Below, one piece after another: positions 17,708 to 61,487 of a stretch of DNA of 64,000 bases (the first letter of the stretch is position 1; every line of letters begins with the position of its first letter). Origin of the DNA: an uncultured bacterium (GTDB lineage Bacteria > Actinomycetota > Actinomycetes > S36-B12); assembly GCA_963793105.1 (NCBI GenBank), contig CAWBZB010000015.1:6168-70167 (forward strand), given 5' to 3'. The notes beneath the pieces were generated by a model that saw nothing but the letters and a program-made list of their open reading frames with translations, was not told the DNA's origin and made no database searches. A program made the position numbers and the translations under genes.

Positions 17708-17712
17708 CCATC

Positions 17713-18746: not shown

Positions 18747-19235
18747 GGACGGGATGCCCGCACGTCTCGTCAGGGACTGAATCCGGTCGGCGATAACCGT
18801 GACGGGCAGCCGTCCGTCGATCTCCAGTGTCGACGTCTGGCGCAGCAGGGGTTCCACGACCTCGATGTCCGCCATGATGCGACGCATGTCCTCGGGGGAT
18901 TTCCCGAACGGGTTGTCGTTCCGGCTCGCCAACCTGCCGGCGAGCACCTCGAGGGGGGCGCTGAGCAGGACGACCGCGTCGAAGCGGTCGTAGAACCTTC
19001 CCTGGTTCGAGACGCACCCCGAGACAACCAGCGGCCCGGAACCGGCCGAGTCGAGCAGCCCGGATATGCGGTCCTCCCGCCACACCTGGTGCCAAGCGGT
19101 GCCGTCGGGCGTCAGGACCTCCTCGCTCCAGCCCTCGTCGTCGGTGTCCACGACCTGCATGCCGCGTCGGGCCAGTTCGATCAGGACGGTCGACTTGCCG
19201 GTCCCGGACATCCCGGTGACGAGGACTGTCCTCAC
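18747..19235 (-). CDS. P-loop NTPase (AAA / small-kinase-like) domain, reads in frame into the DUF429 segment
   Basis: N-terminus of ORF 18144..19235. Walker A GMSGTGKST. No stop codon before the DUF429 segment. Confidence 0.6.
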
Positions 19236-35409: not shown

Positions 35410-35505
35410 CGGCGCTCCTCCCCTCGATGACGCCCGCCGCGCGGACCGCTCCCACCACTGTGAGAATGAGGCTAGACCGATCCGCTCCGACCTCGAAGGA
35501 CGACC

Positions 35506-41721: not shown

Positions 41722-41771
41722 CTCAGGGAAGCTGCCCTGGCGTGACACGACTACCTGGAGAGTGACCTGCC

Positions 41772-43178
41772 GTGAAGAGTGCCGTCGAGACCCTGTCCCC
41801 GACCCGCGTGAAGCTGACGGTCGAGGTGCCCTTCGACGAGCTGAAGCCCAGCATGGACGCCGCCTACGGCCGGATCGCCCAGAGCGTGAACGTGCCCGGG
41901 TTCCGCAAGGGCAAGGTGCCAGCCAGGGTGATCGAGCAGCGGTTCGGCCGCGGCGCGGTCCTCGAGGAGGCCGTCAACGACGCGCTGCCGAAGGCGTACG
42001 ACGAGGCGCTGCGTGAGAACAGCATCGTGCCCGTGGGTCGCCCCGAGCTCGACGTGACGGAGCTGCAGGACGGCGAGGCACTGACCTTCACCGCCGAGGT
42101 CGAGGTGCGGCCGGAGTTCGAGCTCCCCGACTACTCGTCCCTCACGGTCGCGGTGGCCAACGCGGTGCCGGACGAGGCGGACGTCGACGAGCAGCTCGAC
42201 GGACTGCGCGGGCGATTCGCCAACCTCAAGGAGGTCGAGCGCCCGGCGGCGGACGGCGACGTCCTGCTGGTCGACATCGCGGGCGCCACGGCCGAGGGCG
42301 ACGCGGTCGAGGACCTGGTCGGCAACGCGATGTCCTACGAGCTCGGAACCGACGGGATGCTGCCCGGGTTCGACGACGCGGTGCGCGGCGCGGTGAAGGA
42401 CGAGGTGCGCACCTTCGAGTTCGTGCCCGAGAACGGCGACTGGGCGGGCGTCACGCTGGTGGTCACTGCGACCGTGAAGGCCGTGCGCGAGCGTGAGCTG
42501 CCGGCCCTGGACGACGACTTCGCCCAGCTGGCGAGCGAGTTCGACACCGTCGAGGAGCTGCGCAACGACATCCGCGAGCGCCTGACGCAGGGCAAGCGGC
42601 TCGAGCAGGGCGCCGAGGCGCGCAACAACGTCCTGCAGGTGCTGCTCGACTCGATCGACATCCCGCTGCCCGAGGGTGTCATCGCGGCGGAGGTGGAGGA
42701 GCACTTCACCGACGGCCACGACAGCGGCGAGGAGCATCGCGCGGAGGTCGAGCAGCAGGCCCGTGAGTCGCTCAAGAGCCAGTTCGTGCTCGACAAGATC
42801 GCCGAGAAGGAGGAGGTCGCGGTCGGCGAGACCGAGCTCTCCGCCTGGCTGATCCAGCAGGCCCCCCGCTACGGGATGAGCCCCGACGCGTTCGCGAAGG
42901 CGCTCGTCGAGGCCGGCCAGGTGCAGATGGCGATCCAGGACATCCGTCGAGCCAAGGCGCTGGCCGTGGTGCTCGAGTCGGCCACGGTGGTCGACGCCGA
43001 CGGCAACCCGGTGGACCTGAAGGCCCTGGACGAGGAGATGAACCGCCTCCAGGCCATGCAGATGATGCAGGGGATGACCGACGTCGAGGTCGACGAGGAG
43101 GTCGACGTCTACACCGATGAGGACGGCAACGTCGTCGAGGTAGACGTGACCGAGGAGATCATCGAGACGCGGGCCTGA
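41772..43178 (+). CDS. tig: trigger factor
   Basis: ORF 41772..43178. N-terminal ribosome-binding domain (GFRKGKVP), a PPIase-like middle domain and an acidic C-terminus. Confidence 0.95.
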   Translation: MKSAVETLSPTRVKLTVEVPFDELKPSMDAAYGRIAQSVNVPGFRKGKVPARVIEQRFGRGAVLEEAVNDALPKAYDEALRENSIVPVGRPELDVTELQDGEALTFTAEVEVRPEFELPDYSSLTVAVANAVPDEADVDEQLDGLRGRFANLKEVERPAADGDVLLVDIAGATAEGDAVEDLVGNAMSYELGTDGMLPGFDDAVRGAVKDEVRTFEFVPENGDWAGVTLVVTATVKAVRERELPALDDDFAQLASEFDTVEELRNDIRERLTQGKRLEQGAEARNNVLQVLLDSIDIPLPEGVIAAEVEEHFTDGHDSGEEHRAEVEQQARESLKSQFVLDKIAEKEEVAVGETELSAWLIQQAPRYGMSPDAFAKALVEAGQVQMAIQDIRRAKALAVVLESATVVDADGNPVDLKALDEEMNRLQAMQMMQGMTDVEVDEEVDVYTDEDGNVVEVDVTEEIIETRA

Positions 43179-45848: not shown

Positions 45849-46471
45849 GCGCCAGCGCGAGCAACCTGACCGGCCCCACGGGCCGCTACATCCTGCCGGA
45901 GTTCCGGGAGCGCAGCGCCAATGGCGAGCGCATCCACAACCCGTACACCAAGCTGTTCGAGGAGCGCATCATCTTCCTCGGCGTGCAGATCGACGATGCC
46001 AGCGCGGACGACGTCATGGCCCAGCTGCTCACGCTGGAGTCCCTCGACCCCGATCGCGACATCCAGATCTACATCAACTCGCCCGGTGGCTCGTACACGG
46101 CGATGACGGCGATCTACGACACGATGCAGTTCGTCAAGCCGCAGGTGCAGACGGTGTGCCTGGGCCAGGCAGCGAGCGCCGCGGCGGTCCTGCTCGGTGC
46201 CGGCAGCCCGGGCAAGCGTTTCGCCCTGCCGCACGCGCGGATCCTCATCCACCAGCCCTACACCGAGGGCGGCGGCCAGGGGTCGGACATCGAGATCCAG
46301 GCGAACGAGATCATCCGGATGCGCACCGAGATGGAGGGCATCATCGCCAAGCACACCGGCCGGAGCCCCGAGCAGGTGGCGGAGGACATCGAGCGCGACA
46401 AGATCCTCACGGCGGCAGATGCCAAGGAGTACGGCCTCATCGACGCGGTCATCTCCAGCCGCAAGGCCTGA
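45845..46471 (+). CDS. clpP2: ATP-dependent Clp protease proteolytic subunit
   Basis: ORF 45845..46471. GTGA overlap with clpP1. INSPGGS, GQAASAA and LIHQP motifs. Confidence 0.9.
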
Positions 46472-46482
46472 GAACCAGCAGC

Positions 46483-48321
46483 ATGCGATCAGGGACGGTC
46501 CCGCTGGGGCCGTCCCTTCGCGCATCCCTGGACCTGATCGGCCAGCGCGCCCGGCGCCGGTACATCGTGGTCGTCATGGCCCAGATGGCCACCTCCCTGC
46601 TGGATCTGGCCGGCGTCCTGCTCATCGGCATGACCGTGGTATTCGCCTACTCGGTTCCGGCGGGCGTTGAGGTCCCGGCGACCGTCCAGACCGCGATCGA
46701 CACCCTCGGCCTCGAGGATGTTCCGCTGACGACCCTGGCCGTGGCCTGTGGCCTGATCGCCGCGGCGCTCCTGCTCACCAAGAGCGCTGTGAGCGCGATC
46801 ATGCTCCAGCGCATCTTCCGCTTCCTGGCCCGGCGTCAGGCCCAGGTGGCTTCGCAGCTGAGCCGCGGGTGGTTCGGCGCTGACGTGCGCGCCGTCCATT
46901 CGCGGACGGACATCGAGATCGAGCAGGCGGTGACGACTTCCGCGTACTTCGCGACCACGGGGCTGCTCGGCTCGCTGGCCGTCGTCGCGACCGAGCTCTC
47001 GCTTCTGGTCGTGCTGTCCGTGGCCCTGGTGTTCGTCGACCCGGTCGCCACGCTGCTGGCGGCGGCGTGCTTCGTCGTGGTGTCTGTCGTGGTGCACCGC
47101 GCGCTCAGTGGGTGGGCAGGACGGCTCGGCCGTGAGCTCACGGAGCGCAGCGTGGCGGGCCGGGCCGATGTCCGGCAGGCCATGGACTCCTTCCGTGAGC
47201 TTCGCACGGCCCGCCGGCTGGGCTACCCGCTCGAACGCTTCGAAGGCAACGTCGAGCGAATCTCGTCGAACAACGCCAACCTGCTCTTCATCAACAACGT
47301 GCCGAAGATCGCCTACGAGGCGGCGCTGGTCGTCGGCGCGCTCCTGCTCGTCGGCTGGCGGGTCGTGACGGGTGACGTGGCGGAAGCCCTGGCCTTCCTC
47401 GCGGTGTTCCTGACTGCGGCCGCGCGCCTGCTGCCGTCCATGGTCCGACTGCAGGGGCAGCTGGTGAGCATGCGGGCCGCCGCCGGCCAGGCGAGGCTCA
47501 CCTTCGAGTTGGCTGATGAGGAGCGCGAGCGCGGCGCGCCGCCGAGTCTGGACGACCTGGGCCGGCGACTCCCACTGTCCGGAGATGAGACCGCTGACTT
47601 CGACCCGACTGTCGAGGTCACGGACGTCACCGTGACGTACCGGGGCAACGTTGAGCCGACGCTGCAGAACGTGACGCTGAGAATCGCGGCGGGGGAGTCC
47701 CTGGTCCTGGTGGGTCCGACAGGGGTGGGGAAGTCGACTCTGGTCGACGTGATCCTGGGGGCCACGGAGCCGGAGAGCGGCAGCGTCCGCATCGGCGGGC
47801 TCGACCCCCGCGAGTGCCAGGAGCGCTGGCCCGGCGCGATCGCGTACATGCCGCAGGACTGCCCGATCTGGAGCGGCACGGTTCGGGACAACGTGGCCTT
47901 GGGGATTCCTGCCGACCAGATCGACGAAGATGCGGCGTGGCGTGCCCTCGAGCAGGCGCACCTGGCCTCGGACGTCCGGGAGCGTGGCGGTATCGACGCG
48001 CAGGTCGGGCAGGCCGGTCGGCAGTTGAGCGGTGGGCAGCGGCAGCGCCTGGGCATCGCCCGGGCCCTGTACTCCCAGCCGCGGCTGCTGGTCCTCGACG
48101 AAGCGACCAGTGCCCTAGACGAGGAGACGGAGGCGCTCATCGGCGGCGTGATCGAGGAGCTGCGCGGAACCGTCACCGTGATCGCCGTCGCGCACCGGCG
48201 GTCCACCATCGAGCGGGCCACGCGGATCGACGTGGTCGCCGATGCCGGCATCGCCTTCCTCGGCTCGCGGAGTACTCGTCTTCAGCCAGCAGGAGGGACG
48301 GCTCTCGCCCCACTACCGTGA
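46483..48321 (+). CDS. ABC exporter, fused permease/ATP-binding protein
   Basis: ORF 46156..48321 from ATG 46483. Six-TM domain. Walker A GPTGVGKST, signature LSGGQRQR, Walker B LLVLDEATSALD. Confidence 0.85.
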   Translation: MRSGTVPLGPSLRASLDLIGQRARRRYIVVVMAQMATSLLDLAGVLLIGMTVVFAYSVPAGVEVPATVQTAIDTLGLEDVPLTTLAVACGLIAAALLLTKSAVSAIMLQRIFRFLARRQAQVASQLSRGWFGADVRAVHSRTDIEIEQAVTTSAYFATTGLLGSLAVVATELSLLVVLSVALVFVDPVATLLAAACFVVVSVVVHRALSGWAGRLGRELTERSVAGRADVRQAMDSFRELRTARRLGYPLERFEGNVERISSNNANLLFINNVPKIAYEAALVVGALLLVGWRVVTGDVAEALAFLAVFLTAAARLLPSMVRLQGQLVSMRAAAGQARLTFELADEERERGAPPSLDDLGRRLPLSGDETADFDPTVEVTDVTVTYRGNVEPTLQNVTLRIAAGESLVLVGPTGVGKSTLVDVILGATEPESGSVRIGGLDPRECQERWPGAIAYMPQDCPIWSGTVRDNVALGIPADQIDEDAAWRALEQAHLASDVRERGGIDAQVGQAGRQLSGGQRQRLGIARALYSQPRLLVLDEATSALDEETEALIGGVIEELRGTVTVIAVAHRRSTIERATRIDVVADAGIAFLGSRSTRLQPAGGTALAPLP

Positions 48322-48357
48322 CTGGCGCAGGGCTGCCTCGATGCCGGCGCGCTGGTC

Positions 48358-49100
48358 GTGGAGAAGAACGTCTTCGCCCTCCCGTCGGCCTATCGGCCCG
48401 TGCATCCGCGATATGTGCATGCGCTGATGTCGGTTGACGGTGCGCATCGCCTTGCCTGGCGTTCGGGGCTGGCCGGCTGTCGGCCGCCAGCGGAGTACCT
48501 GCTTCTCCCGAACCCGCTGCTCGCGTCGTCATCGGAGATGTGGGAGCGCCGACATCGGGATTCGAATCGATTGAGGTTCCTGCGCGCGGGGCGCCCGGAC
48601 GCCGTCAAGTGGAGCGATTGGGAGCAGCGTCTGGCCCAGGCGATCGCCCGGTCTCGGCCGGGGCTGTCGATCGAACTGACCTTGGTGGGGCTCCCAGACG
48701 AGTGCCGGCTGGACACGCTGTCCCTGCCCCCCAACCTCAGTGTGACGATCCGGCGATGCTGAGCATGGAGCAACTCCGGCAGGCGTATCTCGAATCCGAT
48801 GTCTACGTGCACTTCAGTCGCATTGGAGAGACCTTCGGGAACACGATCGCGGAGGCGCAGGCGGCCGGATGCGTGTGCGTGGTTGCCCTGGATCCGGCCT
48901 GGGACTGCGCCCCACTTGAGTTCCTGGCCGTCGGTCGCTCGCTTGCTGCGAGTCCTGCGACGCTGCTCAGGAGAGTCGACGAACTCGTGGACGGGATCGA
49001 GCGCGCGGGACGGTTCGGTCCAGAAGTCGTTCCCCCTCTGATGAGCGTCGATGCCTACCTTGACCAGTTGCTGGGCCTGGCTGACGGGTTGACTCGCCGG
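48358..49100 (+). pseudogene. glycosyltransferase (GT4-like C-terminal domain) remnant in two frames; 3-prime end approximate
   Basis: ORF 48358..48762 (...LTLVGLPDE..LPPNLSVTI) continues in ORF 48540..49415 from 48756 (MLSMEQLRQAYLESDVYVHFSRIGETFGNTIAEAQAAG). The N-terminal GT-B domain is largely missing. Confidence 0.5.
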
Positions 49101-49277
49101 CGGACTCTTCCCAGCCGCTGTGCGGCCGGTGGTTACCTGGCGTCGGTGGGAACAGGCTCGCAGGCAGGCGTGGCGCGGTGCGTGCGCCGTCACTCGAGGA
49201 GCGCGTGCAGTGAAGAATCGCGTGGTGCGACGACGTGTGGAGTTGGTGTGAGCAATCCCATCCGCAGGCAGGCGGTC

Positions 49278-49637
49278 CTAGGAGACACGGGCCGTGGATT
49301 CCCGGTCCGTGTCAAGAGGCTTCCACAGGAGCCGCGTCGCCGTGGTCCGGGCGATCACGTGGAATCCGTGGCGGAGGTAGAACCCGCCCGCGTCGCGCTT
49401 GCCGGAGGATTCTGAGGGGTACAGGTCGCTGTTGGCCACCACGATCGCGCGGTACTGGATCGTGAGCGTCGACATGAGGAATCCGAGTAGGTGGCCTCCC
49501 GAGGTGGCCGCGAAGGCCAGTGCGTCCGCAGCGTGTGTATGGAGGCGCGTTCTCTGGGGGAGGCGCTCGAGAAGTTCGCAGTGCATCTCGGTGATTCCCG
49601 GAAGGTCCGCTTCCACCGCCGGGCCAATGTCGACCAT
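49278..49637 (-). CDS. short GNAT-like acetyltransferase fragment or hypothetical protein
   Basis: ORF 49278..49637. The terminal FYLRHGF resembles the GNAT C-terminus, but the acetyl-CoA-binding motif is not evident. Confidence 0.3.
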   Translation of the reverse strand: MVDIGPAVEADLPGITEMHCELLERLPQRTRLHTHAADALAFAATSGGHLLGFLMSTLTIQYRAIVVANSDLYPSESSGKRDAGGFYLRHGFHVIARTTATRLLWKPLDTDRESTARVS

Positions 49638-52183: not shown

Positions 52184-52915
52184 ATGGCCTATGAGGGCCA
52201 CCGCTGGGCGTCCGAGGCGATCGGCACGTTCTTCCTCGTCATCGTCGCGGCCGGCGCTCCGATGATGAACCAGGCGTTCGACCAGTCGGTCGGTCGGGTC
52301 GCGGCGGTGGTCGCGCCGGGCGTCATGGTGATGGCCATGATCATGTACATGGGCAAGGTGTCCGGCGCCCACTTCAACCCGGGCGTCACGCTGGCGTTCA
52401 GCCTGCGCGGGGACTTCCCGTGGCGACGGGTCCCCGGCTACCTCGTCGCCCAGCTCGTCGGCGCGACCCTCGCGGTCCTGGTCGCGCAGGCGATCATCGG
52501 GGTCTCCGGGTCCTACGGGGCGACCTTCCCGGCGGACACGAGCACGCCGATGGCCGCGTTCTGGATGGAGCTCATCCTCACCTTCGGGCTGCTGAGCGTG
52601 ATCCTCGGGACGGCGTCGGGGGCGCAGAACATCGGCATCATCGGAGCGATCGGCGTCGGCGGCTACATCGCGCTCGCGGGGCTGTGGGCCAGCCCGCTGT
52701 CGGGGGCGTCCATGAACACCTTCCGCAGCCTGGGCCCCGCGATCGTCGCCAACGACTACTCGTCGATCTGGGTCTACGTCGCCGGACCGCTCATCGGGGC
52801 GGTGCTTGCCGTCGGCGCGGCGATGGCGCTGCGAGGCGCCGGGGGCGGACGCACCGGGTCGCTGGCCGCGCAGGGTGCCTACGCCCCCGAGGTGCGCAAG
52901 CCCGACAAGGCGTAG
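52184..52915 (+). CDS. MIP/aquaporin family channel with deviant NPA boxes
   Basis: ORF 52184..52915. Six TM helices. SGAHFNPGVTLA and SGASMNTFRSLGP occupy the two NPA positions. Confidence 0.85.
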   Translation: MAYEGHRWASEAIGTFFLVIVAAGAPMMNQAFDQSVGRVAAVVAPGVMVMAMIMYMGKVSGAHFNPGVTLAFSLRGDFPWRRVPGYLVAQLVGATLAVLVAQAIIGVSGSYGATFPADTSTPMAAFWMELILTFGLLSVILGTASGAQNIGIIGAIGVGGYIALAGLWASPLSGASMNTFRSLGPAIVANDYSSIWVYVAGPLIGAVLAVGAAMALRGAGGGRTGSLAAQGAYAPEVRKPDKA

Positions 52916-52919: not shown

Positions 52920-53342
52920 TCAGAGCGCGAACGCCGCCGAGTCGGGCAGGAAGTAGTGGTACGGGTTGATGTACAGGGCGATCTTCAACCCGGCTGCGGT
53001 GCGCTGCACGATCCAGTCCTCGCCGACGACCACCTTGATGACCCCTTCTGCGCCGACCACCCGGCCCTCCCAGTAGACCGCGCCGACCGCGCGTGCCCGC
53101 TCCGGCTCGGACGACAGCGGGGTGATCTCCCACGGGTCGAGGGGAATGTGCTTCTCGTCGGTGAGCCGCTGGTGGATCTCGTAGTTGCCCTGCATCGTGA
53201 TGTCCTCCCCGTGCGGCACGACGATGACGGGCGAGGGGTGCACGAAGTAGGCCGACTGCGCGGCGGCGTCGCCCTTGTCGATCATGACGGTCTCGTGGAA
53301 CCGGTTCATGAGGTCGAGGACCTCGTCGATCGTGATGGCCAT
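52920..53342 (-). CDS. NTF2/SnoaL-like fold protein (tentative)
   Basis: ORF 52920..53342 with SD AGGAG 6 nt upstream. Size and alpha+beta pattern only. Confidence 0.45.
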   Translation of the reverse strand: MAITIDEVLDLMNRFHETVMIDKGDAAAQSAYFVHPSPVIVVPHGEDITMQGNYEIHQRLTDEKHIPLDPWEITPLSSEPERARAVGAVYWEGRVVGAEGVIKVVVGEDWIVQRTAAGLKIALYINPYHYFLPDSAAFAL

Positions 53343-53424: not shown

Positions 53425-53694
53425 TCAGGAATCCGACGCGGTGAGGATCCCGATCGTCGTCATCTTCGCCAGGAACGGCTCGACGTCCGCGCGGCACCGC
53501 TCGTCGCTGACGTCGAACTCCTCCCGCAGTGACGAGACCAGGGCGTCGACCGTCGCCGGCTCCGCCAGCAGCGCCCAGACGCGCGCCCCCACACGGTCGA
53601 GCGAGTGGTAGCTGAAGTCGGCAGGAGAGAGCAGGACGACCTGGCCGTCGACGACAGCGTCGACGGCTCCGGTGGCGCGTGAGTACACGGTCAT
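53425..53694 (-). CDS. PqqD-family peptide chaperone (RiPP recognition element)
   Basis: ORF 53425..53763 from ATG 53694, with ATGA overlap on the kinase stop. VVLLSPADFSYHSLDRVGARVWALL...TVDALVSSLREEFDV...DVEPFL is the typical PqqD pattern. Confidence 0.8.
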   Translation of the reverse strand: MTVYSRATGAVDAVVDGQVVLLSPADFSYHSLDRVGARVWALLAEPATVDALVSSLREEFDVSDERCRADVEPFLAKMTTIGILTASDS

Positions 53695-54562
53695 GGCGGC
53701 GTGGTGCTCCCTTGGTCGACGATGATCGAGGCGATGTGGTCCAGGACGATGTCGAGGTGCCACCCTTCGGGCGGTCGGGTGACGCGGTGCACCTCGACGC
53801 TGGAGGCCAGCCGGGTGGCCCAGGCGAAGAACGAGTGAGCGCGACCGTCGGCAGCAGAGATGCCGGCGGAGTTGGAGTTGTTCAGGATCGCCTGGATCCG
53901 CTCGGCGCCCGACGAGCGGCGCGGCAGGCGACGTCGGTGGCAGTGCTCTCGTCGATCATCAGCTCGACGGCGACGCGGAGCGGCCGGGCGCCGTCGACCC
54001 ACGGGCACGCTCGCGCTGATCTTGCTGAGCTCGGACGTCCCGACGCGGGCCGTGTCGGGCACCTCGAAGTGCGCCGCGGCCTGGTCGGTGAGGTGCACGG
54101 GACGCTCCCAGCCGAAGACGATACGGCTGGTCGTCGACGAAGTCGACCGGGACGACGTCGTCGATGATCAGGTGCGTGCCCGCGGCGGCTCGAGTGCGGT
54201 GACGGTGGTGGACTTGCCGGCGCCGGAGAAGCCCATGACGGCCAGGGCGCCGGCGTCGATGACGACGGCGGACGCGTGCAGCGTGTACTCCTGCCGCAGG
54301 ACGCGGATCCAGCGCGGCGCCCACCCGTAGACCAGGTAGTCCATGTCGTGGACCGTGCGGCCGGGGCTCCGGCTCGAGGGTGACGCTCTGGGCGGTGACG
54401 TGCATGCGCCCGACGCCGTCGATCAGGGCGAGGAACTCACCGGGCGCCATCTGCATGAAGCCCTCGTCGCGGGTGACGCCCTCGAGGCTCTCGGCGATGG
54501 GCGCCGACGACCACGTCGACCCCCCATTCGCGCGCGGGGAAGCCGGCGGCGATGGAGGTCAT
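53691..54562 (-). pseudogene. HprK-related P-loop serine kinase (lasso/RiPP-associated type), at least six frame changes
   Basis: Seven colinear segments in three frames rebuild about 283 aa, including LHASAVVIDAGALAVMGFSGAGKSTTVTAL and HLIIDDVVPV. Frame changes lie near 54500, 54362, 54185, 54120, 53995 and 53915. Confidence 0.7.
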
Positions 54563-54569
54563 GGAGGGC

Positions 54570-54575
54570 AGGCTA
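54570..54575 (-). promoter_or_regulatory. -10-like hexamer TAGCCT, 7 nt upstream of the kinase ATG (possible leaderless start)
   Basis: The minus strand reads CAACTAGCCTgccctccATG and fits TANNNT. Confidence 0.3.
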
Positions 54576-54684
54576 GTTGACGGGTCCTGCCGCCGGCCTG
54601 CCTGAAGCCGGCCTCGACTTCGCGACCGCGAGTGGCCTGCGGTGCGGCTCAGCCGCTCGACGTCAGGGGTCGGCATTATGGAGC

Positions 54685-54813
54685 CTACGCTGGGTGGGGC
54701 TGGGACTGGGGGTGCCGTTGCGGATGCGGGCGTGACGGGTGCCCGGACGCGCCGTCGGCGTCGCTGAGGGGCGTGACCTCGGGGGCCTGCCAGTCGAGCT
54801 TCTCGCTAGTCAT
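54685..54813 (-). CDS. putative RiPP precursor peptide P1 (42 aa as written; tail frame uncertain)
   Basis: MTSEKLDWQAPEVTPLSDADGASGHPS... It is a DNA-level tandem paralogue of P2. Relative to P2 it has a 1-nt insertion near 54735 and lacks one AACGGC unit. Confidence 0.5.
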   Translation of the reverse strand: MTSEKLDWQAPEVTPLSDADGASGHPSRPHPQRHPQSQPHPA

Positions 54814-54822
54814 TGTCGGGTC

Positions 54823-54957
54823 CTAGGTTCGGGTGGGGCTGGGACTGGGGGTGCCGTTGCCGTTGCGGATGCGGGCGGACGGGTGCCCGGATGCGCCGTC
54901 GGCCTCGGTGATAGAGGTGACGTGCGGCGCGGTCCACTCGCTCTTGTCAGGAGTCAT
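54823..54957 (-). CDS. putative RiPP precursor peptide P2 (44 aa)
   Basis: MTPDKSEWTAPHVTSITEADGASGHPSARIRNGNGTPSPSPTRT, within ORF 54823..55008. GC3 is very high. Has the W-x-A-P-x-V leader-like motif. Confidence 0.55.
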   Translation of the reverse strand: MTPDKSEWTAPHVTSITEADGASGHPSARIRNGNGTPSPSPTRT

Positions 54958-54964
54958 GCGGGGG

Positions 54965-54970
54965 AGTCTA
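54965..54970 (-). promoter_or_regulatory. -10-like hexamer TAGACT, 7 nt upstream of the P2 ATG (possible leaderless start)
   Basis: The minus strand reads GCCTAGACTcccccgcATG. Confidence 0.3.
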
Positions 54971-55060
54971 GGCGGGCTCCGGCCTCCGGACAAGGACTTT
55001 TCCCGCAATTTCGGGCATGAGTGGATTCCGATTCGCCTACAGTCGGGCGCGGGAGGTTCG

Positions 55061-56104
55061 ATGCCAACACTGCGCCGCTACCTGTCGGCCGGGCGCGACG
55101 TCGCGCGTGACGCGGTGACCTGGCGCCCGGGTCGGCAGACCAGCGAGGACACCTACCTGGCCGTCCGCACCCTGCATCGCAAGACCGGAGGAGTCTCGAG
55201 CAGGGCCGCGCTCGCGGTGGTGCGGGCACGTGCACGACCGGGGCGGGGCTGACGCCGCGGGCGCGCTGGACGCCCGCGTGGCAGCCGGCGCTCGCGGACG
55301 GTGAGCAGGGACGGCGTCGAGCGTGACGCCGCCGCTGCTCGACGACGGCGGCCGCTGGCGCGGATCCGCGACTTCGCGGCGACGGCCCCGGCCATCCTGT
55401 CGCAGCGTCGACGGCAGCGACGCAGGCGCGGGACCCTGCAGGATCGGGACGCCGGACACGGCCGGGGTGCGCATCGTCGAGCGGTTCGTCCTCGACCAGC
55501 CCGACATCCAGGGCGTCATCGCCAGCCCGCAGGTGCGCGACTTCGCGCGCGGCCTACTTCCACGCGACCCCCGTGATGCACCCGCCGCAGCTGTACTGGT
55601 CGCTGCGCCGGCGCCCGGCTGATCGGGCGAGGCGGCGGCCGTCGAGCGCGCGTCGGTTCCACTGGGACTACGACGGCCTGGCCGGCCTGCGGCTGCACAT
55701 GTACCTGACCGACGTGGACGAGGGCGCGGCGCCGATGAGCTACGTCCTGGGCAGTCACGCCCAGGGCGGGCTTCGGTCACCGGCACTGCGGCAACGCGGA
55801 CATGGGCGTCGCCGACGAGGAGCTGTACGCGCAGTACCCGGCCTCGGCGGTGCGGGCCATCACCGGCCCGGCCGGCACGACGTTCATCAGCGACTCCCGG
55901 GGCCTGCACCGCGGCAACGACGCCATCAGCGCGGACCGGCTCTTCCTCGTCATGCCGATGCAGGCCACCGGGTTCGGCGGCTACCAGCTGCGCCCGCGGC
56001 TGGTGACCCCGAAGGACCCGGGGCTGAAGGCCGGGATCGAGCAGGGCCGGGTGGAGCTCAGCCTCTTCCGGCCCCGCCCCGAGGGGTCGGCCGGAACGCG
56101 CTGA
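55061..56104 (+). pseudogene. PhyH-like Fe(II)/2-oxoglutarate dioxygenase, at least three frame changes
   Basis: ATG 55061 follows GGGAGG. Colinear pieces lie in ORFs 54833..55252, 55323..55622, 55573..56433 and 55802..56104. FHWDYD...YVLGSH and GLHRG give a His-x-Asp...His triad. Confidence 0.6.
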
Positions 56105-56512
56105 CGGCCGTGAACCCGTCGCTTGCCGGTCCGCCGACCACGGTGCCGGTGCTGCCCGACCAGCCAGGCGTGGGCGTCCCAGCCATCGGTGCGGCGCAGG
56201 CCGATGATCGCCGTGCCGGGCCGTCGGCGCAGCCGCAGCATGACCTGTGCGGCCAGGGCCTGGTCGAGGCAGTTCGCCTGCCACGGCACGCGACGGACGG
56301 CACGGCCCACCGCCGCCTGCACGGACGCCTCGACTGCCGGTGGGCGAGGAGCCGTCCGGCCCGGCGTCGGGGGCGGGCACGGGGCTCCCGAGCAGGCGGT
56401 GCCAATGCCGCGTCGACAGGGTCCGGCGGGTGACGGATGCGACGGCGAGGACGGTCCATGCCTCGGCGAGCATCGCAAGGTCCATCGCCCGCACGCGCGC
56501 CCGCTCAGCCAC
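56058..56512 (-). pseudogene. lasso-peptide B2-type transglutaminase-like cysteine peptidase, two frame changes
   Basis: The N-terminus AMLAEAWTVLAVASVTRR is in ORF 55037..56512. The core RRVPWQANCLDQALAAQVMLRLRR...DAHAWLVG is in ORF 55981..56985. The tail STGTVVGGPASDGFTAV is in ORF 56058..56459. Confidence 0.7.
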
Positions 56513-56518
56513 GAGGTG

Positions 56519-56524
56519 ACTCTA
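56519..56524 (-). promoter_or_regulatory. -10-like hexamer TAGAGT, 6 nt upstream of the B2 GTG (possible leaderless start)
   Basis: The minus strand reads GCCTAGAGTcacctcGTG. Confidence 0.3.
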
Positions 56525-56558
56525 GGCCGACCTCCCCGCGAGGACCTAGGACGGCCGC

Positions 56559-56564
56559 TAGGGT
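56559..56564 (+). promoter_or_regulatory. -10-like hexamer TAGGGT, 7 nt upstream of the P3 ATG (possible leaderless start)
   Basis: The plus strand reads GCTAGGGTgacgcccATG. Confidence 0.3.
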
Positions 56565-56571
56565 GACGCCC

Positions 56572-56673
56572 ATGACGAATCCCAGCACCCCCGAGGCCCG
56601 CGAGCCCTGGCAGTCCCCGTCCGTCGAGCAGATCGCCGTGACCGACGACGCGCAGTCCATTTCCTTCGCCTGA
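56572..56673 (+). CDS. putative RiPP precursor peptide P3 (33 aa)
   Basis: MTNPSTPEAREPWQSPSVEQIAVTDDAQSISFA, the end of ORF 56437..56673. 31 of 33 codons end in G/C. Shares W-x-S-P-x-V-x-x-I with P1 and P2. Confidence 0.55.
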   Translation: MTNPSTPEAREPWQSPSVEQIAVTDDAQSISFA

Positions 56674-56684
56674 CCGATCCGGTC

Positions 56685-57827
56685 CTAGCCGCGAAGCGGC
56701 AGTCGGCCTCCTCGCGTGAGCGCGAGCCAGCGGGCGAGGTCGCGGGCCTCCCGGTAGGTCAGCCGCGCATCCCCTCGATGCGCGTGCCGCCACGTGCGCC
56801 GCACGCTCAGCAGTTCCGCGGCCAGTCGCGGATCCGTCTGGATCGCGCCCATGATCGTCCGCGACAGGTTCGTGGTCGTCGTTGGGGCGGGGCCTGAACC
56901 AGGGGCCGGCAGCGGCTCGCCCGCCCGGATGGCGCGCAGCGCGGGCAGGAGCGGGTACCCGAGCCGGTGCTGGTAGGCGTGCCACACGTTGGGCCGCAGG
57001 TCCACCTCGAACACCGCGTGCGTCCCGTTCGGGCGCCTTATGGCGGACAGGTTGCCGAACCAGCGACCGCCCAGCGCCGCGGCGATGCGGTCGAGGTCGG
57101 CAAGCAGGCGGCGATCGGTCAGCGGGACGAACTGCCGCGTCACCGAGACCCCGTAGGGGCCGAGCGACCGGAGCACGCGGGAGTAGGGGGCGGTGGCGAC
57201 CCGGCCGTCACTGACGAGGATGTCGATGGACACCAGGAACCCGTCGACGAGTTCCTCGACGAGGTAGGGCCCCTCGTTCCCGCGTCGCGGCACCACCACG
57301 TCGCCGGGAGATCGCAGCACTGTGGTGCCGGCGCCCGCGCCGCTGCGGTCCGCCTTGACGATCACCGGGTACCCGAGGGTCGCGGCTGCGTGCGGCAGGT
57401 CCCCGGGGGAGGGGGCCACCGTCCAGCGGGGCTGGTCGACGCCGAGGTCGCGCAGGAGTGCGGCCATCCCGGTCTTGGTGCCGACGGCGTCGAGGTGCGC
57501 GGCGGGTACCGGCAGCAGGGCCAGTGCACGCGGGTGGTGCTCGGCGGCCGCGAGCACGTCCCAGACGTCTGCATCGGAGCCGAGGATCACCCAGTCGCCG
57601 GGTCCGACCGAGTCGGCGATCGTCGCGAGGATGGCGTGCCGCTGCTCGAGGTCGTCGGGCAGCGTGGCGCATCGGCGGGGGTGGCGGCTGTAGCCCAGGC
57701 GGCTCCCCGGAGCCGACCACACGTCGACGGTGAGGCCGGCGGCGGTCAACATCGGCAGGAGGCGAGCAACGGCGGACGGGTGCGGGGAAATGACGACAAC
57801 GCGGTCGACGCCGGCGCCCGTGGTCAT
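56685..57827 (-). CDS. ATP-grasp domain ligase
   Basis: Last 380 codons of ORF 56685..58922 from ATG 57827. GYPVIVKADRSGAGAG, YLVEELVDG and FEVDLRPN are typical ATP-grasp motifs. Confidence 0.8.
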   Translation of the reverse strand: MTTGAGVDRVVVISPHPSAVARLLPMLTAAGLTVDVWSAPGSRLGYSRHPRRCATLPDDLEQRHAILATIADSVGPGDWVILGSDADVWDVLAAAEHHPRALALLPVPAAHLDAVGTKTGMAALLRDLGVDQPRWTVAPSPGDLPHAAATLGYPVIVKADRSGAGAGTTVLRSPGDVVVPRRGNEGPYLVEELVDGFLVSIDILVSDGRVATAPYSRVLRSLGPYGVSVTRQFVPLTDRRLLADLDRIAAALGGRWFGNLSAIRRPNGTHAVFEVDLRPNVWHAYQHRLGYPLLPALRAIRAGEPLPAPGSGPAPTTTTNLSRTIMGAIQTDPRLAAELLSVRRTWRHAHRGDARLTYREARDLARWLALTRGGRLPLRG

Positions 57828-57859
57828 GACGTTGGACGATATCCGGCGGCGTCCACGGA

Positions 57860-58604
57860 CTACAGCAGCCCGAGCCGCGCTGGCCCGCGCGACGGCCTCC
57901 TGCCTCGTGGAAACGCCGAGGACCCTCAGGGCCCGCTGGAGGTCGGCCTTGACGGTGTCGCGGGAGCACCCGAGCTCCAGGGCGATCGACGCGTTGCCGA
58001 GCCCCCGTTCGACGCCCTGCAGGATGCTCGCCTGCCGTGGGGTGAGGGCGAGCCCGGGGCTCCAGGATCGCGGGAGGTCGGGGGGCGCTGGCCGGCTCGG
58101 GTGCGTCAACCACAGTCCCAGGGCGGCCGACAGGCCGAGCAGGGCCGGCTGGGCGTCGACGGATGCGGCGGCGGGGTCGGCGGCGAGGAAGCCGTAGGCC
58201 CCGACGGCCGTGCCGTCGAGCGCGATCGGGACGCTCATGAGCACCCCGTCGGGCAGGTCCGCGAGCAGCGAGGTCCACATCCCGGCATCGATCTCGAGCA
58301 GCGGGTACTCGTCCAGCAGTGTGCGCAGCGACGTGGCCACCGGCATTCCCTGCTGCACGGCGAGCACGAAGGGCAGGTGGCCGCGCATCGGGATCGCCCG
58401 GTACCGGGCAAGCTCGTCGGTCGGGTAGCCGTCGCTCGCCAGCGTGAGCAGTTCGTCGCCGACCAGGCGCACGATGCTGCCGGCGGTCGCCCCGAAGGCG
58501 GCGAGCGGACCGTGCACGAGCGCGGGGACGACGATCGCCGGGGAGGGTAGGGAGGCGAGGAGGCGCAGGAACGGGCCGAGCGCCGGCAGGTGGAGGCCGG
58601 TCAC
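57860..58604 (-). pseudogene. GAF-like + LuxR-type HTH regulator, paralogue 1; frame change near 57885 removes the stop
   Basis: GTG 58604 overlaps the paralogue-2 stop (GTGA). A one-base correction gives the typical C-terminus ARLGLL followed by TAG at 57860-57862. As written it reads through into the ATP-grasp gene. Confidence 0.7.
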
Positions 58605-59338
58605 GAGGGGAGCTGCCCGAGGGCGGTGGCCCGTTCGATCGCCGAGGCGCGCGTGGCGACGCCCAGGGCGGCGTAGATGCGGCGCAGCTCCGCCTTCACC
58701 GTCGAGTCCGAGATCGAGAGGGCGGCGGCGATGGCGGTGTTGGACCTCCCGGCCGCCACCATGCCCAGGATGTCGACCTGCCGGGCTGTCAGCGACCCTG
58801 CGACGACGTCCGGAGCGAGGTCGGCCGCGGGACCCGGGTGGCTCAGCCACAGGCCCAGGGCGGCGCCGTACGCCTCGAGCCCGGCGATCTCCGTGGTGCT
58901 CCACTGCCGTTCGTCGCGGCAACTGAATCCGAAGGCGCCGATCGCGCGGCCCTGCAGCACGATGGGCGCGGTCACCAGCGACCCGTACCCCTCACTGGCA
59001 ATGGCCCGGTCCCAGAGGTCGTCGTCCCGCTCGAGCCCGGCATTCTCCGGCAGCACCTCCAGGGCACCGGAGATGATGACGGCCTGCTCGCGGAAGGCCC
59101 GCGTCATCGGGTAGTCGCCGGCGTTGGGCATCACCCGGTAGGGCTCGACCATCTCGGCCGGGTATCCGTAGTCCCCGACGATCACCTGGTCTCTGCTCAC
59201 CGCGGTGCTGAGGACGCCGGCGTGCGCGCCGAACTCGGCCAGCGGCCCCGTGACCAGGGCGGTGATCACCGTCGTCGGGTCCGGCCGGGTGCCGAGCAGG
59301 AGCAGGATCTCGGCGATCCCCGCCCGGTCGCCGCTCAT
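58601..59338 (-). CDS. GAF-like + LuxR-type HTH regulator, paralogue 2
   Basis: ORF 58601..59338. C-terminal LTARQVDILGMVAAGRSNTAIAAALSISDSTVKAELRRIY. Confidence 0.8.
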   Translation of the reverse strand: MSGDRAGIAEILLLLGTRPDPTTVITALVTGPLAEFGAHAGVLSTAVSRDQVIVGDYGYPAEMVEPYRVMPNAGDYPMTRAFREQAVIISGALEVLPENAGLERDDDLWDRAIASEGYGSLVTAPIVLQGRAIGAFGFSCRDERQWSTTEIAGLEAYGAALGLWLSHPGPAADLAPDVVAGSLTARQVDILGMVAAGRSNTAIAAALSISDSTVKAELRRIYAALGVATRASAIERATALGQLPS

Positions 59339-60117
59339 CGGGCCAGCTCCGCGGCCTGCTGCGCGTCGTCGAGGAGTCCGAGCGCTCGCGCCCGCGCGAC
59401 GGCGACGTCGCGGTCATCGGTGCGCAGCATCCGCATGATCTGGCCCAGGTCGGTCTTGACGGTGGATGCCGAGTAGCGAAGGAGGTGGGCGATCAGCTCG
59501 GTCGGCAGGCCCTGCTCGACCATCAGCAGGATGAGCTCCTGACGGTGGGTGAGGGCGACGGGTGTCTCGTCGGACTGGACGGCCGTCGGCGTGACCTTGA
59601 CCCGTCGCGGGTGCGTCAGCCACAGGCCGAGGGCCGCACCGATCGCGAGAAGCGCGGTCTCGTCGGCGTCGGTCCAGTCGACCTTGCGGTCGCAGATGAA
59701 TCCGTATGCGCCGACGACGCGCCCGTCGTACCGGATCGGCACGTTGCCGATGGACTCTGCCCCGAGCCGCTCGACGATCGCCTGCCACAGCGCCTCGTCG
59801 AGGGCGGCCGCGCGGTAGTCGCGCGCGTTGGTGGCCGCCTCGGCGGGCTGGAACGAGTCGTCCCGGGCGGCCCGGGTGATCGCGAAGTCGAGGCGTAGCG
59901 GGATCCGGCCGTGCCGGGAGGTCTCGTCCGCGGTGTGCCCGTACATGGCCAGCCGGTCCAGGTGATCGCCGTCGATCAGCTTCCAGATCCCGCCGGCGCG
60001 CGCGCCGTAGTGGCTCAGCGGTCCGTGCACCAGGGCAGCGAGGGTGCCTTCCGGGGCGGGCAGGGTCGACAGGTACTGCAGCCATGACGACTGTCCGGGC
60101 AACGCTGCGGACGGCAT
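59335..60117 (-). CDS. GAF-like + LuxR-type HTH regulator, paralogue 3
   Basis: ORF 59335..60555 from ATG 60117 after GGAGGTGGAGG. C-terminal LTHRQELILLMVEQGLPTELIAHLLRYSASTVKTDL. Confidence 0.8.
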   Translation of the reverse strand: MPSAALPGQSSWLQYLSTLPAPEGTLAALVHGPLSHYGARAGGIWKLIDGDHLDRLAMYGHTADETSRHGRIPLRLDFAITRAARDDSFQPAEAATNARDYRAAALDEALWQAIVERLGAESIGNVPIRYDGRVVGAYGFICDRKVDWTDADETALLAIGAALGLWLTHPRRVKVTPTAVQSDETPVALTHRQELILLMVEQGLPTELIAHLLRYSASTVKTDLGQIMRMLRTDDRDVAVARARALGLLDDAQQAAELAR

Positions 60118-60437
60118 CGCCTCCACCTCCCCCGAGGTCCCCCGCCTGCGCAGATGCAGGACGTGATGCTCACCGTATCTCCCAGTTGCGCCATCGGCCC
60201 GGGGATCCGCGCGAGCGGCGCCGTGGCGGGTATGACCAGGGCATGGTCGCCATGGCGTCGACCGGGGAACGGGCGCGTGAACTAATGGCTCCCGGCACCG
60301 GATACGCGCGGTGCCGCGCGCGCCGATGGGGGTGCTGCAGCCGAGCGGGGGACGGCTCCAGCGCCCCCGTTCGGTCTGGACGGTCACACCGCCCGCTGGG
60401 CCGGTCATGAGGCAGTCGTGCGGCGGACACTGGAAGC

Positions 60438-61487
60438 ATGAGGCGGGTTCCCGCGGTCGCGACGGCACTCCTGGTGGTTCTTGCGTTGGCGGGCTGCACC
60501 GCGCAGGCGGTCGTCCTTCCCCCCGCAGAGCCCGTCCCGGCACCGTCGGCGGCAACCGGGGATGCGGACCCCTTCGTGACGGGCCTGACGGTGCCGTGGG
60601 CGATCGGCGGCATGCGCATCGAGCGGGACGGCCGGCTGCGCTACTTCGCGGGGGAGTGGCCCACCGTGCCCGTCGCCGCGCTGCGGCTGTGGGACACCCG
60701 CACGGCCTGGCTCAACATCGAGCCCGCGGACGACCGGTGGGACTTCGCCCGGCTGGATGCCTTCGTCGACAAGGCGATCGCGCGCGGCACGACGGACATC
60801 TCCCTGACCCTGGCCGGGACACCGAAGTGGGCTGCCACCACGGTGTCCGACTCGGACGCTCCCTGGCTCGGCCCGGGCTCGGCCTCGCCGCCGAGGCGGA
60901 CCGCCGAGTGGCGGGAGTTCGTCACGAAGGTGGCCACCCGGTACCGCGGCCGGATCACCTCCTACGAGATCGGCAACGAGCCGAACCTCAGGGCCTTCTG
61001 GAGCGGCACGCCGGGCCAGTACGGGACGTTCGTGCGCACCGCCGCCGAGGCGATCCGCGCGGCCGATCCGCAGGCGGTCATCGTCGCCGCGGTGGGGCTG
61101 GTGCGCGGCCGGAAGGACCTCGACGGCCTGGCCCCGTGGATCGACGCGGCGACCTCCAGCTTCGAGGTGGACGCCGTCTCCGTGCACGTCTACCCCAAGG
61201 CGTCGGCGATGGACGCCGCGCCGACGCTGCTTGCGGGCGTGCGGCGGCACGTCGCTGCCGGGGCGCCGGAGGAGAAGCACCTGTGGGCCACCGAGGTGAA
61301 CGTCCACGGCGGCAGCGACCTGTCCAGGTGGCGGCAGGAGTCGGCGGTCCTGGACCTGACGGAGTCGGCCGAGGCGGCGGGGTTCTCCCGCGTCTACTGG
61401 TACGCGTGGACGGACCTCGGCCCGGAGGACCTGATCCAGCTGGCGCCCGGGACGCCCGGCGCCGGGGCGCTGGCCGCGATCAGCTGA
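60438..61487 (+). CDS. clan GH-A TIM-barrel glycoside-hydrolase-like lipoprotein
   Basis: ORF 60438..61487. Lipobox LALAGC. YEIGNEPN (acid/base Glu) and WATEVN (nucleophile Glu). Confidence 0.7.
   Translation: MRRVPAVATALLVVLALAGCTAQAVVLPPAEPVPAPSAATGDADPFVTGLTVPWAIGGMRIERDGRLRYFAGEWPTVPVAALRLWDTRTAWLNIEPADDRWDFARLDAFVDKAIARGTTDISLTLAGTPKWAATTVSDSDAPWLGPGSASPPRRTAEWREFVTKVATRYRGRITSYEIGNEPNLRAFWSGTPGQYGTFVRTAAEAIRAADPQAVIVAAVGLVRGRKDLDGLAPWIDAATSSFEVDAVSVHVYPKASAMDAAPTLLAGVRRHVAAGAPEEKHLWATEVNVHGGSDLSRWRQESAVLDLTESAEAAGFSRVYWYAWTDLGPEDLIQLAPGTPGAGALAAIS

Follow-up and report, generated by a model that had tools for sequence, protein, structure and literature searches.

A lasso-like peptide gene cluster without a lasso cyclase in Actinomycetota

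Among described systems, the closest to the locus analyzed here are the lasso peptide clusters of the paeninodin and pseudomycoidin type, which comprise a precursor (A), a PqqD protein (B1), a B2 peptidase, a cyclase (C), an HPr-kinase homologue (K), a nucleotidyltransferase (N) and a sulfotransferase. The roles of the kinase, the nucleotidyltransferase and Fe/2OG hydroxylases on linear lasso precursors have been reviewed (PMC8498205), and canucin CanE provides a precedent for an Fe/2OG hydroxylase as a tailoring enzyme. The locus shares with these clusters a split B1 (PqqD/RRE) and B2 (transglutaminase-like Cys peptidase), an HprK-like kinase and a leader with an aromatic-x-x-P-x-aliphatic motif; many relatives also carry NTP_transf_5. 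However, no C cyclase was found in it, its peptides do not fit the lasso rule (Gly/Ala/Ser/Cys at position 1, Asp/Glu at positions 7-9), there are two distinct precursor families, and B2 is linked to an ATP-grasp ligase.

Three other systems are relevant. PGM1 (pheganomycin) and the L-amino-acid ligases RizA, BL00235 and YwfE/BacD share the ATP-grasp fold and, as PGM1 appears to illustrate (mentioned in PMC8939145), the logic of ATP-dependent amide formation between a carboxylate and the free N-terminus of a ribosomal peptide. However, sequence identity to solved ligases is only 12-20%, PGM1 did not appear among the best sequence or fold matches, and the ligase is here paired with an RRE-type peptidase system and a dedicated short precursor. 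Graspetides (microviridins and other omega-ester/amide peptides) also combine a ribosomal precursor with an ATP-grasp enzyme, but no NCBIfam graspetide maturase model was hit, the best fold matches are not RimK- or MdnC-like, and the precursors lack the repeated Thr/Ser/Lys...Asp/Glu core motifs. In addition, a B2 peptidase and PqqD are not part of graspetide clusters, and a graspetide survey does not mention them in that role (PMC8939145). Finally, the NCBIfam "HPr-rel-A system", uncharacterized and known in silico, pairs an HprK-related kinase A with a PqqD family chaperone, often with an NTP_transf_5 nucleotidyltransferase, and glycan-locus versions were seen in two of the loci examined (L016 and L038, see below). 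Here the kinase scores 26-37 bits against a cutoff of 200 and the PqqD 25.7 bits against a cutoff of 35, and that system has no described precursor, oxygenase, B2 or ATP-grasp. No description of the present combination was found in the literature.

Gene content of the locus

The window is a 64-kb stretch of an uncultured actinobacterial genome (GCA_963793105.1, contig CAWBZB010000015.1, positions 6,168 to 70,167). A first-pass annotation had proposed that 53425-57827 holds a RiPP-like cluster with lasso-type accessory genes but no lasso cyclase, and each gene that it listed was confirmed. The PqqD-like RiPP recognition element (53425-53694, minus strand; 89 aa, intact) matches Pfam PqqD at E = 2.8e-16. 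Its best NCBIfam hit is the lasso PqqD chaperone at 56 bits, below the cutoff of 80; it is 72% identical to the PqqD of L026, a related locus in MAG GCA_016125355.1, and 100% identical in nucleotides to that of another relative, L029. Its start ATG overlaps, by ATGA, the stop of an HprK-like P-loop kinase (53691-54571, minus) with the motif GFSGAGKST. The kinase has about 7 frame breaks (near 54490-54505, 54366, 54190, 54172, 54123, 53999 and 53924). Frameshift-aware alignment to L026 and L030, a relative on a 9.8-kb contig, gave 179-181 identities over 284-286 residues, and the frame-corrected sequence is 56-67% identical over 97% of its length to intact proteins of ~285 aa. NCBIfam hits to HprK_rel_A/B are weak. 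TAGCCT lies at -13 from the ATG at 54562.

Two tandem small open reading frames on the minus strand encode precursors of a family that we call preA. preA2 (54823-54957; 44 aa), MTPDKSEWTAPHVTSITEADGASGHPSARIRNGNGTPSPSPTRT, has a -10 box TAGACT at 54965-54970, that is, TANNNT at -13. preA1 (54663-54813, with the small ORF itself at 54685-54813) begins MTSEKLDWQAPEVTPLSDADGASGHPS, and a one-base insertion (GTCACGCCC versus GTCCGCCC in preA2) shifts its frame before the conserved ARIRNG; its -10 box is degenerate (TAGGAC). The PhyH-family Fe(II)/2-oxoglutarate oxygenase (55061-56104, plus) has about 10-11 frame breaks but retains the HWD...H motif (FHWDYDG, GLHRG). This family has 46 close homologues, some with precomputed PF05721 hits; H196, D198, H278 and R288 are invariant. 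The fold assignment was confirmed on orthologues: an AF2 model (pLDDT 95) matches SnoN, EctD and proline hydroxylases.

The lasso-type B2 cysteine peptidase (56058-56512, minus) scores 66.5 bits with NCBIfam lasso_biosyn_B2 (NF033537) against a cutoff of 33, and matches Pfam Transglut_core3 at E = 5.5e-13. It has 2-3 frame breaks (about 56335-56365 and 56157), and its Cys (NCLDQA) and His (AHAWL) motifs are retained. The third small open reading frame, preB (56572-56673, plus; 33 aa), MTNPSTPEAREPWQSPSVEQIAVTDDAQSISFA, is antisense to, and lies between, the ATP-grasp and B2 genes; its -10 box TAGGGT at 56559-56564 again places TANNNT at -13. The ATP-grasp ligase (56685-57827, minus; 380 aa, intact) is of the L-amino-acid-ligase/PurK type. 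Its Pfam ATP-grasp hit is weak, a word-index search of 5.8 billion proteins found only 3 close homologues, and a full HMMER search found 25 representatives at E <= 1e-30. Its AF2 model (pLDDT 77) best matches RizA, BL00235, PurK, biotin carboxylase and PylC.

Next to the ligase lies a LuxR-family regulator (57860-58604, minus) with a GAF-like N-terminal part and a GerE HTH (E = 3.7e-10). A 3' frame break removes its stop and creates an apparent LuxR-ATP-grasp fusion ORF (56685-58922); the expected C-terminus ...ARLGLL* and its TAG at 57860-57862 lie in another frame. Two further tandem LuxR-family paralogues (58601-59338 and 59335-60555, minus) are possible cluster regulators.

No asparagine-synthetase-like cyclase was found in the window, although this check was not fully exhaustive: there is no SGGxDS PP-loop motif in any of the six frames of the 64 kb, and Pfam gave no Asn_synthase hit on the 20 largest high-GC3 ORFs. 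The interrupted kinase, oxygenase, B2 and preA1, which exist here only as reconstructions, contain no in-frame stops after frame correction and show normal orthologue-level identity. Moreover, the breaks differ from those in a relative whose flanks are identical, so they are probably assembly errors; a consensus or assembly artefact in a strain-variable region is more likely than old pseudogenization.

Two modules in related loci

The arrangement is far from chance, because the same gene set and the same small peptides recur in independent loci at 45-65% protein identity. Comparison of about a dozen loci supports the first-pass interpretation of a RiPP-like cluster without a lasso cyclase, but shows that the cluster is made of two modules. 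Module 1 consists of 1-4 preA peptides, the HprK-like kinase, the PqqD/RRE protein and the PhyH-family oxygenase, and is present in all eight complete relatives examined. Module 2 consists of preB, the ATP-grasp and B2. These three occur together in six loci (the window, L029, L026, L030, L001 and the distant L015) and are absent together from five, module 1 standing alone in L031, L032/L033, L034/L035 and L037. In L015 the ATP-grasp is 28% and B2 47% identical, with two preB-like ORFs, but no PqqD was seen on its 7.4 kb.

L026 and L030 carry the same genes intact. Gene order is B2, ATP-grasp, preB, oxygenase, two preA, kinase, PqqD and NTP_transf_5 in L026, and ATP-grasp, preB, B2, oxygenase, three preA, NTP_transf_5, kinase and PqqD in L030. 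Neither has an Asn-synthetase homologue within the locus analyzed (±10 kb for L026, the whole 9.8-kb contig for L030). Similarly, no C cyclase was found in L029, L031, L032, L034 or L037. In contrast, one more distant relative, L038, which also carries sulfotransferases, has a lasso-cyclase-like gene beside the oxygenase, where L026 has ATP-grasp/preB/B2. The best NCBIfam match of this gene is the lasso isopeptide cyclase at 246.6 bits, below the curated cutoff of 525; it lacks the N-terminal Cys and has SGGLDS. Both preA cores of L038 have an Asp 8-10 residues after RIRN, and no B2 lies within ±10 kb. The family is therefore evolutionarily tied to lasso pathways.

The small open reading frames form conserved families of 25 preA and 8 preB sequences, which share a W-x-x-P-x-V/L leader motif. 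In preA the W, the P and an Arg-Asn are invariant, whereas preB carries EPWQxPxVxEIAV..DA... The same preB peptide sits in the same position and orientation in L001, L003, L026, L029 and L030, and related peptides occur in L015. In addition, 24 of 29 precursor genes have their own TANNNT -10 box 6-7 nt upstream of the ATG (at -12/-13), against 1.6% of random ATGs, so they look like leaderless transcripts.

Alternative readings and a proposed pathway

One alternative, which we consider unlikely, is that only preA, the kinase, PqqD and the oxygenase (with or without the nucleotidyltransferase) form the peptide system, the ATP-grasp being an amino-acid-adding ligase of the teichuronopeptide type that belongs to the surrounding cell-envelope glycopolymer genes and is merely linked to B2 and preB within a mobile island. 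Consistent with this, module 1 occurs alone in five loci; L002 carries a 49%-identical ATP-grasp beside GNAT and IspD-like genes, with no preB or B2 on its 2.9-kb contig; and in L016 a distant ATP-grasp sits among GDP-mannose dehydratase, GT4, GT2, HprK-like and NTP_transf_5 genes. Furthermore, L001, L026, L038 and the window are rich in glycosyltransferases and Lsr2, and TupA- and ST-type ATP-grasps lie nearby in L029. However, preB lies within the 100-170-bp gap next to the ATP-grasp, in a fixed antisense orientation, in six loci, B2 appears only where the ATP-grasp and preB appear and never with module 1 alone, and the trio recurs in L015 in a lower-GC background.

It is about equally doubtful that the peptides are not secreted natural products but signaling or regulatory peptides, or peptide primers for phospho-glycosylation of the envelope, sensed or controlled by the adjacent GAF-LuxR regulators. 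Three tandem LuxR-family genes flank the cluster in the window and one precedes preA in L003, no transporter gene lies inside the core cluster, and a kinase plus NTP_transf_5 phospho-glycosylates pseudomycoidin (PMC8498205). The family is also conserved next to tig-clpP1P2 in several genomes, which suggests vertical inheritance rather than a mobile antibiotic cluster. However, hypervariable C-terminal tails and multiple paralogous precursors per locus are typical of RiPP natural products, LuxR genes are absent from L026 and L030, and ABC-transporter genes occur near several loci. This reading concerns biological role and is compatible with the enzymology proposed below.

That the locus is a degraded ordinary lasso cluster whose cyclase was lost is very unlikely, despite the lasso-type B1 and B2, the broken frames of the window and the cyclase-like gene of L038, since L026 and L030, the closest intact orthologues, are in frame without a cyclase in the loci analyzed, the ATP-grasp and preB are conserved with B2 across loci at 45-55% identity and also in L015, most preA cores lack any Asp or Glu, L038 has no nearby B2 and a sub-cutoff cyclase score, and the window's frame-corrected genes are free of stops.

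With moderate confidence, we propose that the region is one copy of a conserved, two-module RiPP-like cluster of high-GC Actinomycetota, derived from paeninodin-type lasso machinery but working without a lasso cyclase. As no product or enzyme activity is known, every chemical step of the following pathway is inferred. The preA genes (two copies) and preB would each be transcribed as leaderless mRNAs, and the PqqD-like RRE would bind the shared leader motif, which seems to resemble the lasso YxxPxL motif. The RRE would then present the linear peptides to the HprK-like kinase for O-phosphorylation of a Ser or Thr, as the paeninodin kinases do; candidate sites are the conserved P-[LVI]-[TS]-[DE] of preA and the Ser near the C-terminus of preB. 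The oxygenase would hydroxylate a side chain, for which the invariant Arg-Asn of preA is the best candidate.

In module 2, B2 would remove the preB leader, after which the ATP-grasp would activate a carboxylate as an acyl phosphate and join it to an amine. Candidate carboxylates are the conserved Asp of the preB [DE]-D-A motif, the C-terminus, or a free acid, and the amine is most simply the alpha-amine newly exposed by B2. However, the preB tail after the leader motif is only about 10 residues and preA tails usually lack Asp or Glu, and no lasso-like ring can be drawn with confidence. The product would be a small macrolactam or an N-terminally extended peptide, which would place the ATP-grasp in the role that the Asn-synthetase-like cyclase has in lasso pathways.

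The peptide cluster and its reading frames

The window has about 71% G+C, and every element listed by the first-pass annotation was found in 53425-57827. On the minus strand are an intact PqqD gene (53425-53694; Pfam PqqD, E = 2.8e-16), an HprK-like P-loop kinase (53691-54571) whose stop overlaps the PqqD start (ATGA), two small ORFs (54685-54813 and 54823-54957), a B2 peptidase (56058-56512), and an intact ATP-grasp of 380 aa (56685-57827). The plus strand carries a PhyH-like gene (55061-56104) and a third small ORF (56572-56673). The frame-corrected B2 protein passes the curated NCBIfam lasso B2 model (NF033537, 66.5 bits against a cutoff of 33) and retains the Cys and His motifs of this transglutaminase-like Cys protease. 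The best NCBIfam hits of the PqqD protein are the lasso B1 models, but these score below their cutoffs (56 versus 80, and 38 versus 70), and the kinase gives only weak HprK-related hits. Directly downstream of PqqD, before the MIP aquaporin gene (52184-52915, plus strand), lies an intact 140-aa ORF of unknown function (52920-53342, minus strand). Other weak similarities in the window, at 19089-19232 (P-loop only; an AAA_18/DUF429 gene) and 35488-36069 (generic ATP-grasp), are unrelated.

Frameshift-aware protein-to-DNA alignment against intact orthologues identified about 7 frame changes in the kinase, 10-11 in the oxygenase, 2-3 in B2, one in preA1 (an extra A), and one in the LuxR gene upstream of the ATP-grasp. 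In the latter, the expected C-terminus (...ARLGLL*) and its TAG at 57860-57862 lie in another frame; this accounts for the apparent 745-aa LuxR-ATP-grasp fusion ORF, which a gene caller recorded as a 639-aa protein (P0001). This LuxR gene is the first of three tandem paralogous regulators (57860-60555, minus strand), each with a GAF-like N-terminal region and a LuxR/GerE HTH, of which the first two are joined by overlapping stop/start codons. After frame correction no in-frame stops remain, and identity to orthologues (about 62%) matches that between intact orthologues. Interestingly, the metagenome contig L029 is 100% identical to the window across the ATP-grasp and PqqD, but only 40-94% identical, with many gaps, in the 3 kb between (56800-53850 of the window versus 900-3850 of L029), and it has its own frame breaks at different positions. 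Its frame-corrected oxygenase is closer to that of L030 (76%), a contig with an intact cluster, than to that of the window (60%), so real allelic divergence and indels are mixed. Substitutions between the window and L029 are only moderately enriched at third positions (61 of 133 in the kinase and 111 of 247 in the oxygenase) and did not discriminate between pseudogene and error. An aminopeptidase N homologue (pepN, 15132-17710, minus strand) is also spread over at least two overlapping frames, with Peptidase_M1 in ORF 15931-17211 and ERAP1_C in ORF 15132-16553; frame breaks are therefore not confined to the peptide cluster. Without read data, we consider that these breaks probably reflect consensus or indel error layered on a strain-variable cassette, although genuine recent decay remains possible.

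Related loci and the search for a lasso cyclase

The ATP-grasp has only three close homologues in a word-indexed set of 5.8 billion proteins, and a full HMMER scan of 1.84 billion representatives found 25 at E <= 1e-30. The corrected kinase retrieved 15 intact proteins of about 285 aa at 44-67% identity, and an oxygenase profile retrieved 46 proteins at 42-98%. Locus L026, from the MAG Actinomycetales bacterium GCA_016125355.1, carries B2(-), ATP-grasp(+), preB(-), oxygenase(-), preA x2(+), kinase(+), PqqD(+), and NTP_transf_5(-), all in frame. L030 carries ATP-grasp, preB, B2, oxygenase, preA x3, NTP_transf_5, kinase, and PqqD which, apart from NTP_transf_5, is the same order as in the window. 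Two loci are partial: L001 has ATP-grasp, preB (antisense), and B2 up to the contig end, and L003 has LuxR, preA, ATP-grasp, and preB. None of these loci has an Asn-synthetase homologue.

In contrast, L031 (a 3.68-Mb contig), L032/L033, L034/L035, and L037 have only preA x2-4, kinase, PqqD, and oxygenase, with or without NTP_transf_5. The family therefore has two modules: B2 is present only where the ATP-grasp and preB are present (six loci), and all three are absent together in five loci. In L037 the kinase and oxygenase calls are fragmented, and one preA paralogue (4994, minus strand) has R-D instead of the otherwise invariant R-N (…APIRDGFESIG) and lacks an obvious start codon; it is possibly a decayed copy. 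In several genomes, among them L031, L034, and L037, the clusters recur near trigger factor (tig), clpP1P2, and an ABC ATPase, as in the window (tig at 41766-43178, and about 46100-49300); in others they lie beside Lsr2 and many glycosyltransferases. TupA- and ST-type ATP-grasp genes lie near 48-49 kb (annotated on L029).

Scans with the ATP-grasp profile of one genome per GTDB species and of JGI metagenome contigs returned only relatives of 22-30% identity, of which two loci were informative. L015 has an ATP-grasp 28% identical and a B2 47% identical to that of L030, together with two preB-like ORFs (...TWSSPKVEQISIL...). L016 has PqqD-like, HprK-like, and NTP_transf_5 genes. In the other 20 loci, tblastn and purpose-built B2 and PqqD HMMs found nothing. 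In L016 (5418-12502), as in L026 (13587-15998) and L038 (661-7028), a second, larger PqqD-like protein (140-147 aa) is paired with a ScmC/HprK-like kinase (335-350 aa), GT2/GT4 glycosyltransferases, NTP_transf_5, and sulfotransferases inside glycan loci; in L016 this set includes a distant homologue of the ATP-grasp. It may be a related, uncharacterised peptide-glycan system. However, there is one exception to the linkage of the second module: L002, a 2.9-kb contig, has a 49%-identical ATP-grasp next to GNAT and IspD-like genes.

The Asn-synthetase-like cyclase (C protein; PF00733/NF033535) that defines lasso clusters was not found in the window, in a check that was not fully exhaustive. No SGGxDS PP-loop motif occurs in the six frames of the window, L001, L015, L026, or L029-L035, and no Asn_synthase Pfam hit was obtained on the 20 largest ORFs of the window or on the called genes of L026, L030, L031, L032, and L034. 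Only in the relative L038 does the oxygenase/kinase/preA x2/PqqD set lie next to a 624-aa Asn-synthetase-like gene, which lacks the N-terminal Cys and has SGGLDS. Its best NCBIfam hit is the lasso isopeptide cyclase (246.6 bits, cutoff 525), and it occupies the position that ATP-grasp/preB/B2 have in L026, with no B2 within +-10 kb. Both preA cores there have an Asp 8-10 residues after RIRN. This ties the family to lasso pathways and suggests that the cyclase and the ATP-grasp module are alternatives.

Precursor peptides and predicted enzymes

The preA peptides (25 sequences from 11 loci) share the consensus M-x(4-10)-W-[QTN]-x-P-x-[VLI]-x-P-[LVI]-[TS]-[DE]-x(9-10)-[IVA]-R-N-[GAL]-x(3-15), and the preB peptides the consensus ..EPWQ[SP]P[ST]V.[EQ][IV]A[VL].[DEA]DA...S.. 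(8 sequences). Both share W-x-x-P-x-V, which may resemble the lasso YxxPxL leader motif. With a conserved N-terminal motif, hypervariable tails, and 1-4 copies per locus next to an RRE and putative modifying enzymes, these genes have the organization of RiPP precursors. However, they do not follow the rules for lasso cores (a small N-terminal residue, Asp/Glu at position 7-9, and a penultimate Thr in the leader): most preA tails after R-N have no acidic residue, the preB tail is only about 10 residues, and no conserved Thr is present at a plausible -2 position.

In 24 of 29 precursor genes, a TANNNT hexamer starts 12-13 nt before the ATG, against 1.6% of all ATGs in the same loci, and many also have a TTG-containing -35-like element. 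The kinase ATG shows the same arrangement. In the window these -10-like hexamers lie at 54965-54970, 56559-56564, and 54575-54580, and they also occur in L001, L003, L026, L029-L031, L034, and L036-L038. This is the established geometry of actinobacterial leaderless transcripts. Codon statistics could not resolve the strand of preB, as the sense and antisense frames share third-codon positions. The -10 box, together with start, stop, and length conservation and motif similarity to preA, settles that preB is coded on the strand opposite the ATP-grasp.

The AF2 model of the oxygenase (pLDDT 95) matches the PhyH-family Fe(II)/2OG enzymes SnoN, EctD, GriE, and proline hydroxylases at E ~1e-10, and H196-x-D198, H278, and R288, as expected for an iron triad and a 2OG-binding Arg, are invariant in 39 sequences. 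The Pfam PhyH hit is only sub-threshold on L026 but is precomputed for several homologues. The model of the ATP-grasp (pLDDT 77) is closest to L-amino-acid ligases (RizA, BL00235, YwfE), PurK, biotin carboxylase, and PylC, and not to graspetide ligases. NCBIfam gave only weak PurT/PurK/CPSase/RimK-type hits for it and no graspetide maturase model, and the precursors lack the Thr/Ser/Lys-Asp/Glu cross-link motifs of graspetides. A sequence search of the PDB gave only generic ATP-grasp hits, and PGM1 was not among the best 60 sequence matches or the best 50 fold matches, but the general L-amino-acid-ligase-like fold is shared. More generally, Pfam and NCBIfam gave nothing for the small peptides, the oxygenase, or the ATP-grasp beyond weak superfamily hits. 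The cluster does not match the NCBIfam HPr-rel-A system, as the kinase scores 25.7-37 bits (TIGR04352, cutoff 200) and the PqqD 25.7 bits (TIGR04353, cutoff 35). Nor does it match Haft's GAK system (ATP-grasp and HprK-related kinase B): there was no hit to its ATP-grasp model, and the kinase score is far below cutoff.

Proposed chemistry and significance

Precedents for these tailoring enzymes exist in lasso biochemistry, where HPr-kinase homologues phosphorylate a Ser hydroxyl of the linear precursor, NTP_transf-type enzymes add hexose to that phosphate, and the Fe/2OG enzyme CanE hydroxylates the linear precursor (PMC8498205). By inference, we propose that the RRE binds the shared leader motif and that the kinase and the oxygenase tailor the linear peptides. 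Candidate sites are the conserved [TS] in P-[LVI]-[TS]-[DE], the Ser near the preB C-terminus, and the invariant Arg-Asn. B2 would then remove the preB leader, and the ligase-type ATP-grasp would form an amide via an acyl phosphate, between the conserved Asp (or another carboxylate) and the new N-terminus. Rival readings are an ATP-grasp that serves envelope glycopolymers, a signalling role for the peptides and, least likely, a degraded lasso cluster.

A more far-reaching hypothesis, which we regard as doubtful but which is not excluded by the evidence, is that the ATP-grasp has taken over the role of the lasso cyclase. After RRE-guided leader removal by B2, it would close an N-terminus-to-Asp (or C-terminus) macrolactam on the very short preB core, through an acyl-phosphate rather than an acyl-adenylate. 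Alternatively, it would ligate preB-derived and preA-derived peptides to each other. Either reaction would define a new RiPP class built from lasso parts, with two co-processed precursor families and with phosphorylation and hydroxylation centred on an invariant Arg-Asn.

Literature searches found no description of B2/PqqD/HprK-like kinase with an ATP-grasp, or of these precursor motifs, and the combination is not mentioned in a graspetide survey (PMC8939145), an RRE survey, or a 2018 RiPP-mining preprint. The closest known systems are the paeninodin-type lasso clusters, whose defining cyclase and core rules were looked for and not found here, followed by PGM1 and L-amino-acid-ligase chemistry. 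We regard the cluster as an RRE-dependent RiPP-like pathway of unknown product. The two precursor families offer sharp motifs for genome mining, preA (W-x-x-P-x-V/L ... R-N) and preB (EPWQxPxVxEIAV.[DE]DA), and small actinobacterial precursor genes can be recognised by a -10 box placed for leaderless translation. In addition, the HprK-like kinase, the PhyH-type oxygenase, and the L-amino-acid-ligase-like ligase are new candidate tailoring enzymes, all predicted to act on linear, leader-tagged peptides, the property that makes such enzymes useful for peptide engineering. Lasso B1/B2 proteins are thought of as dedicated partners of the lasso cyclase. A conserved family in which they serve an ATP-grasp ligase, or in which the RRE and kinase work with no peptidase or cyclase at all, would show that this leader-recognition toolkit is modular, and would be a natural example of one ATP-dependent amide-forming enzyme replacing another.
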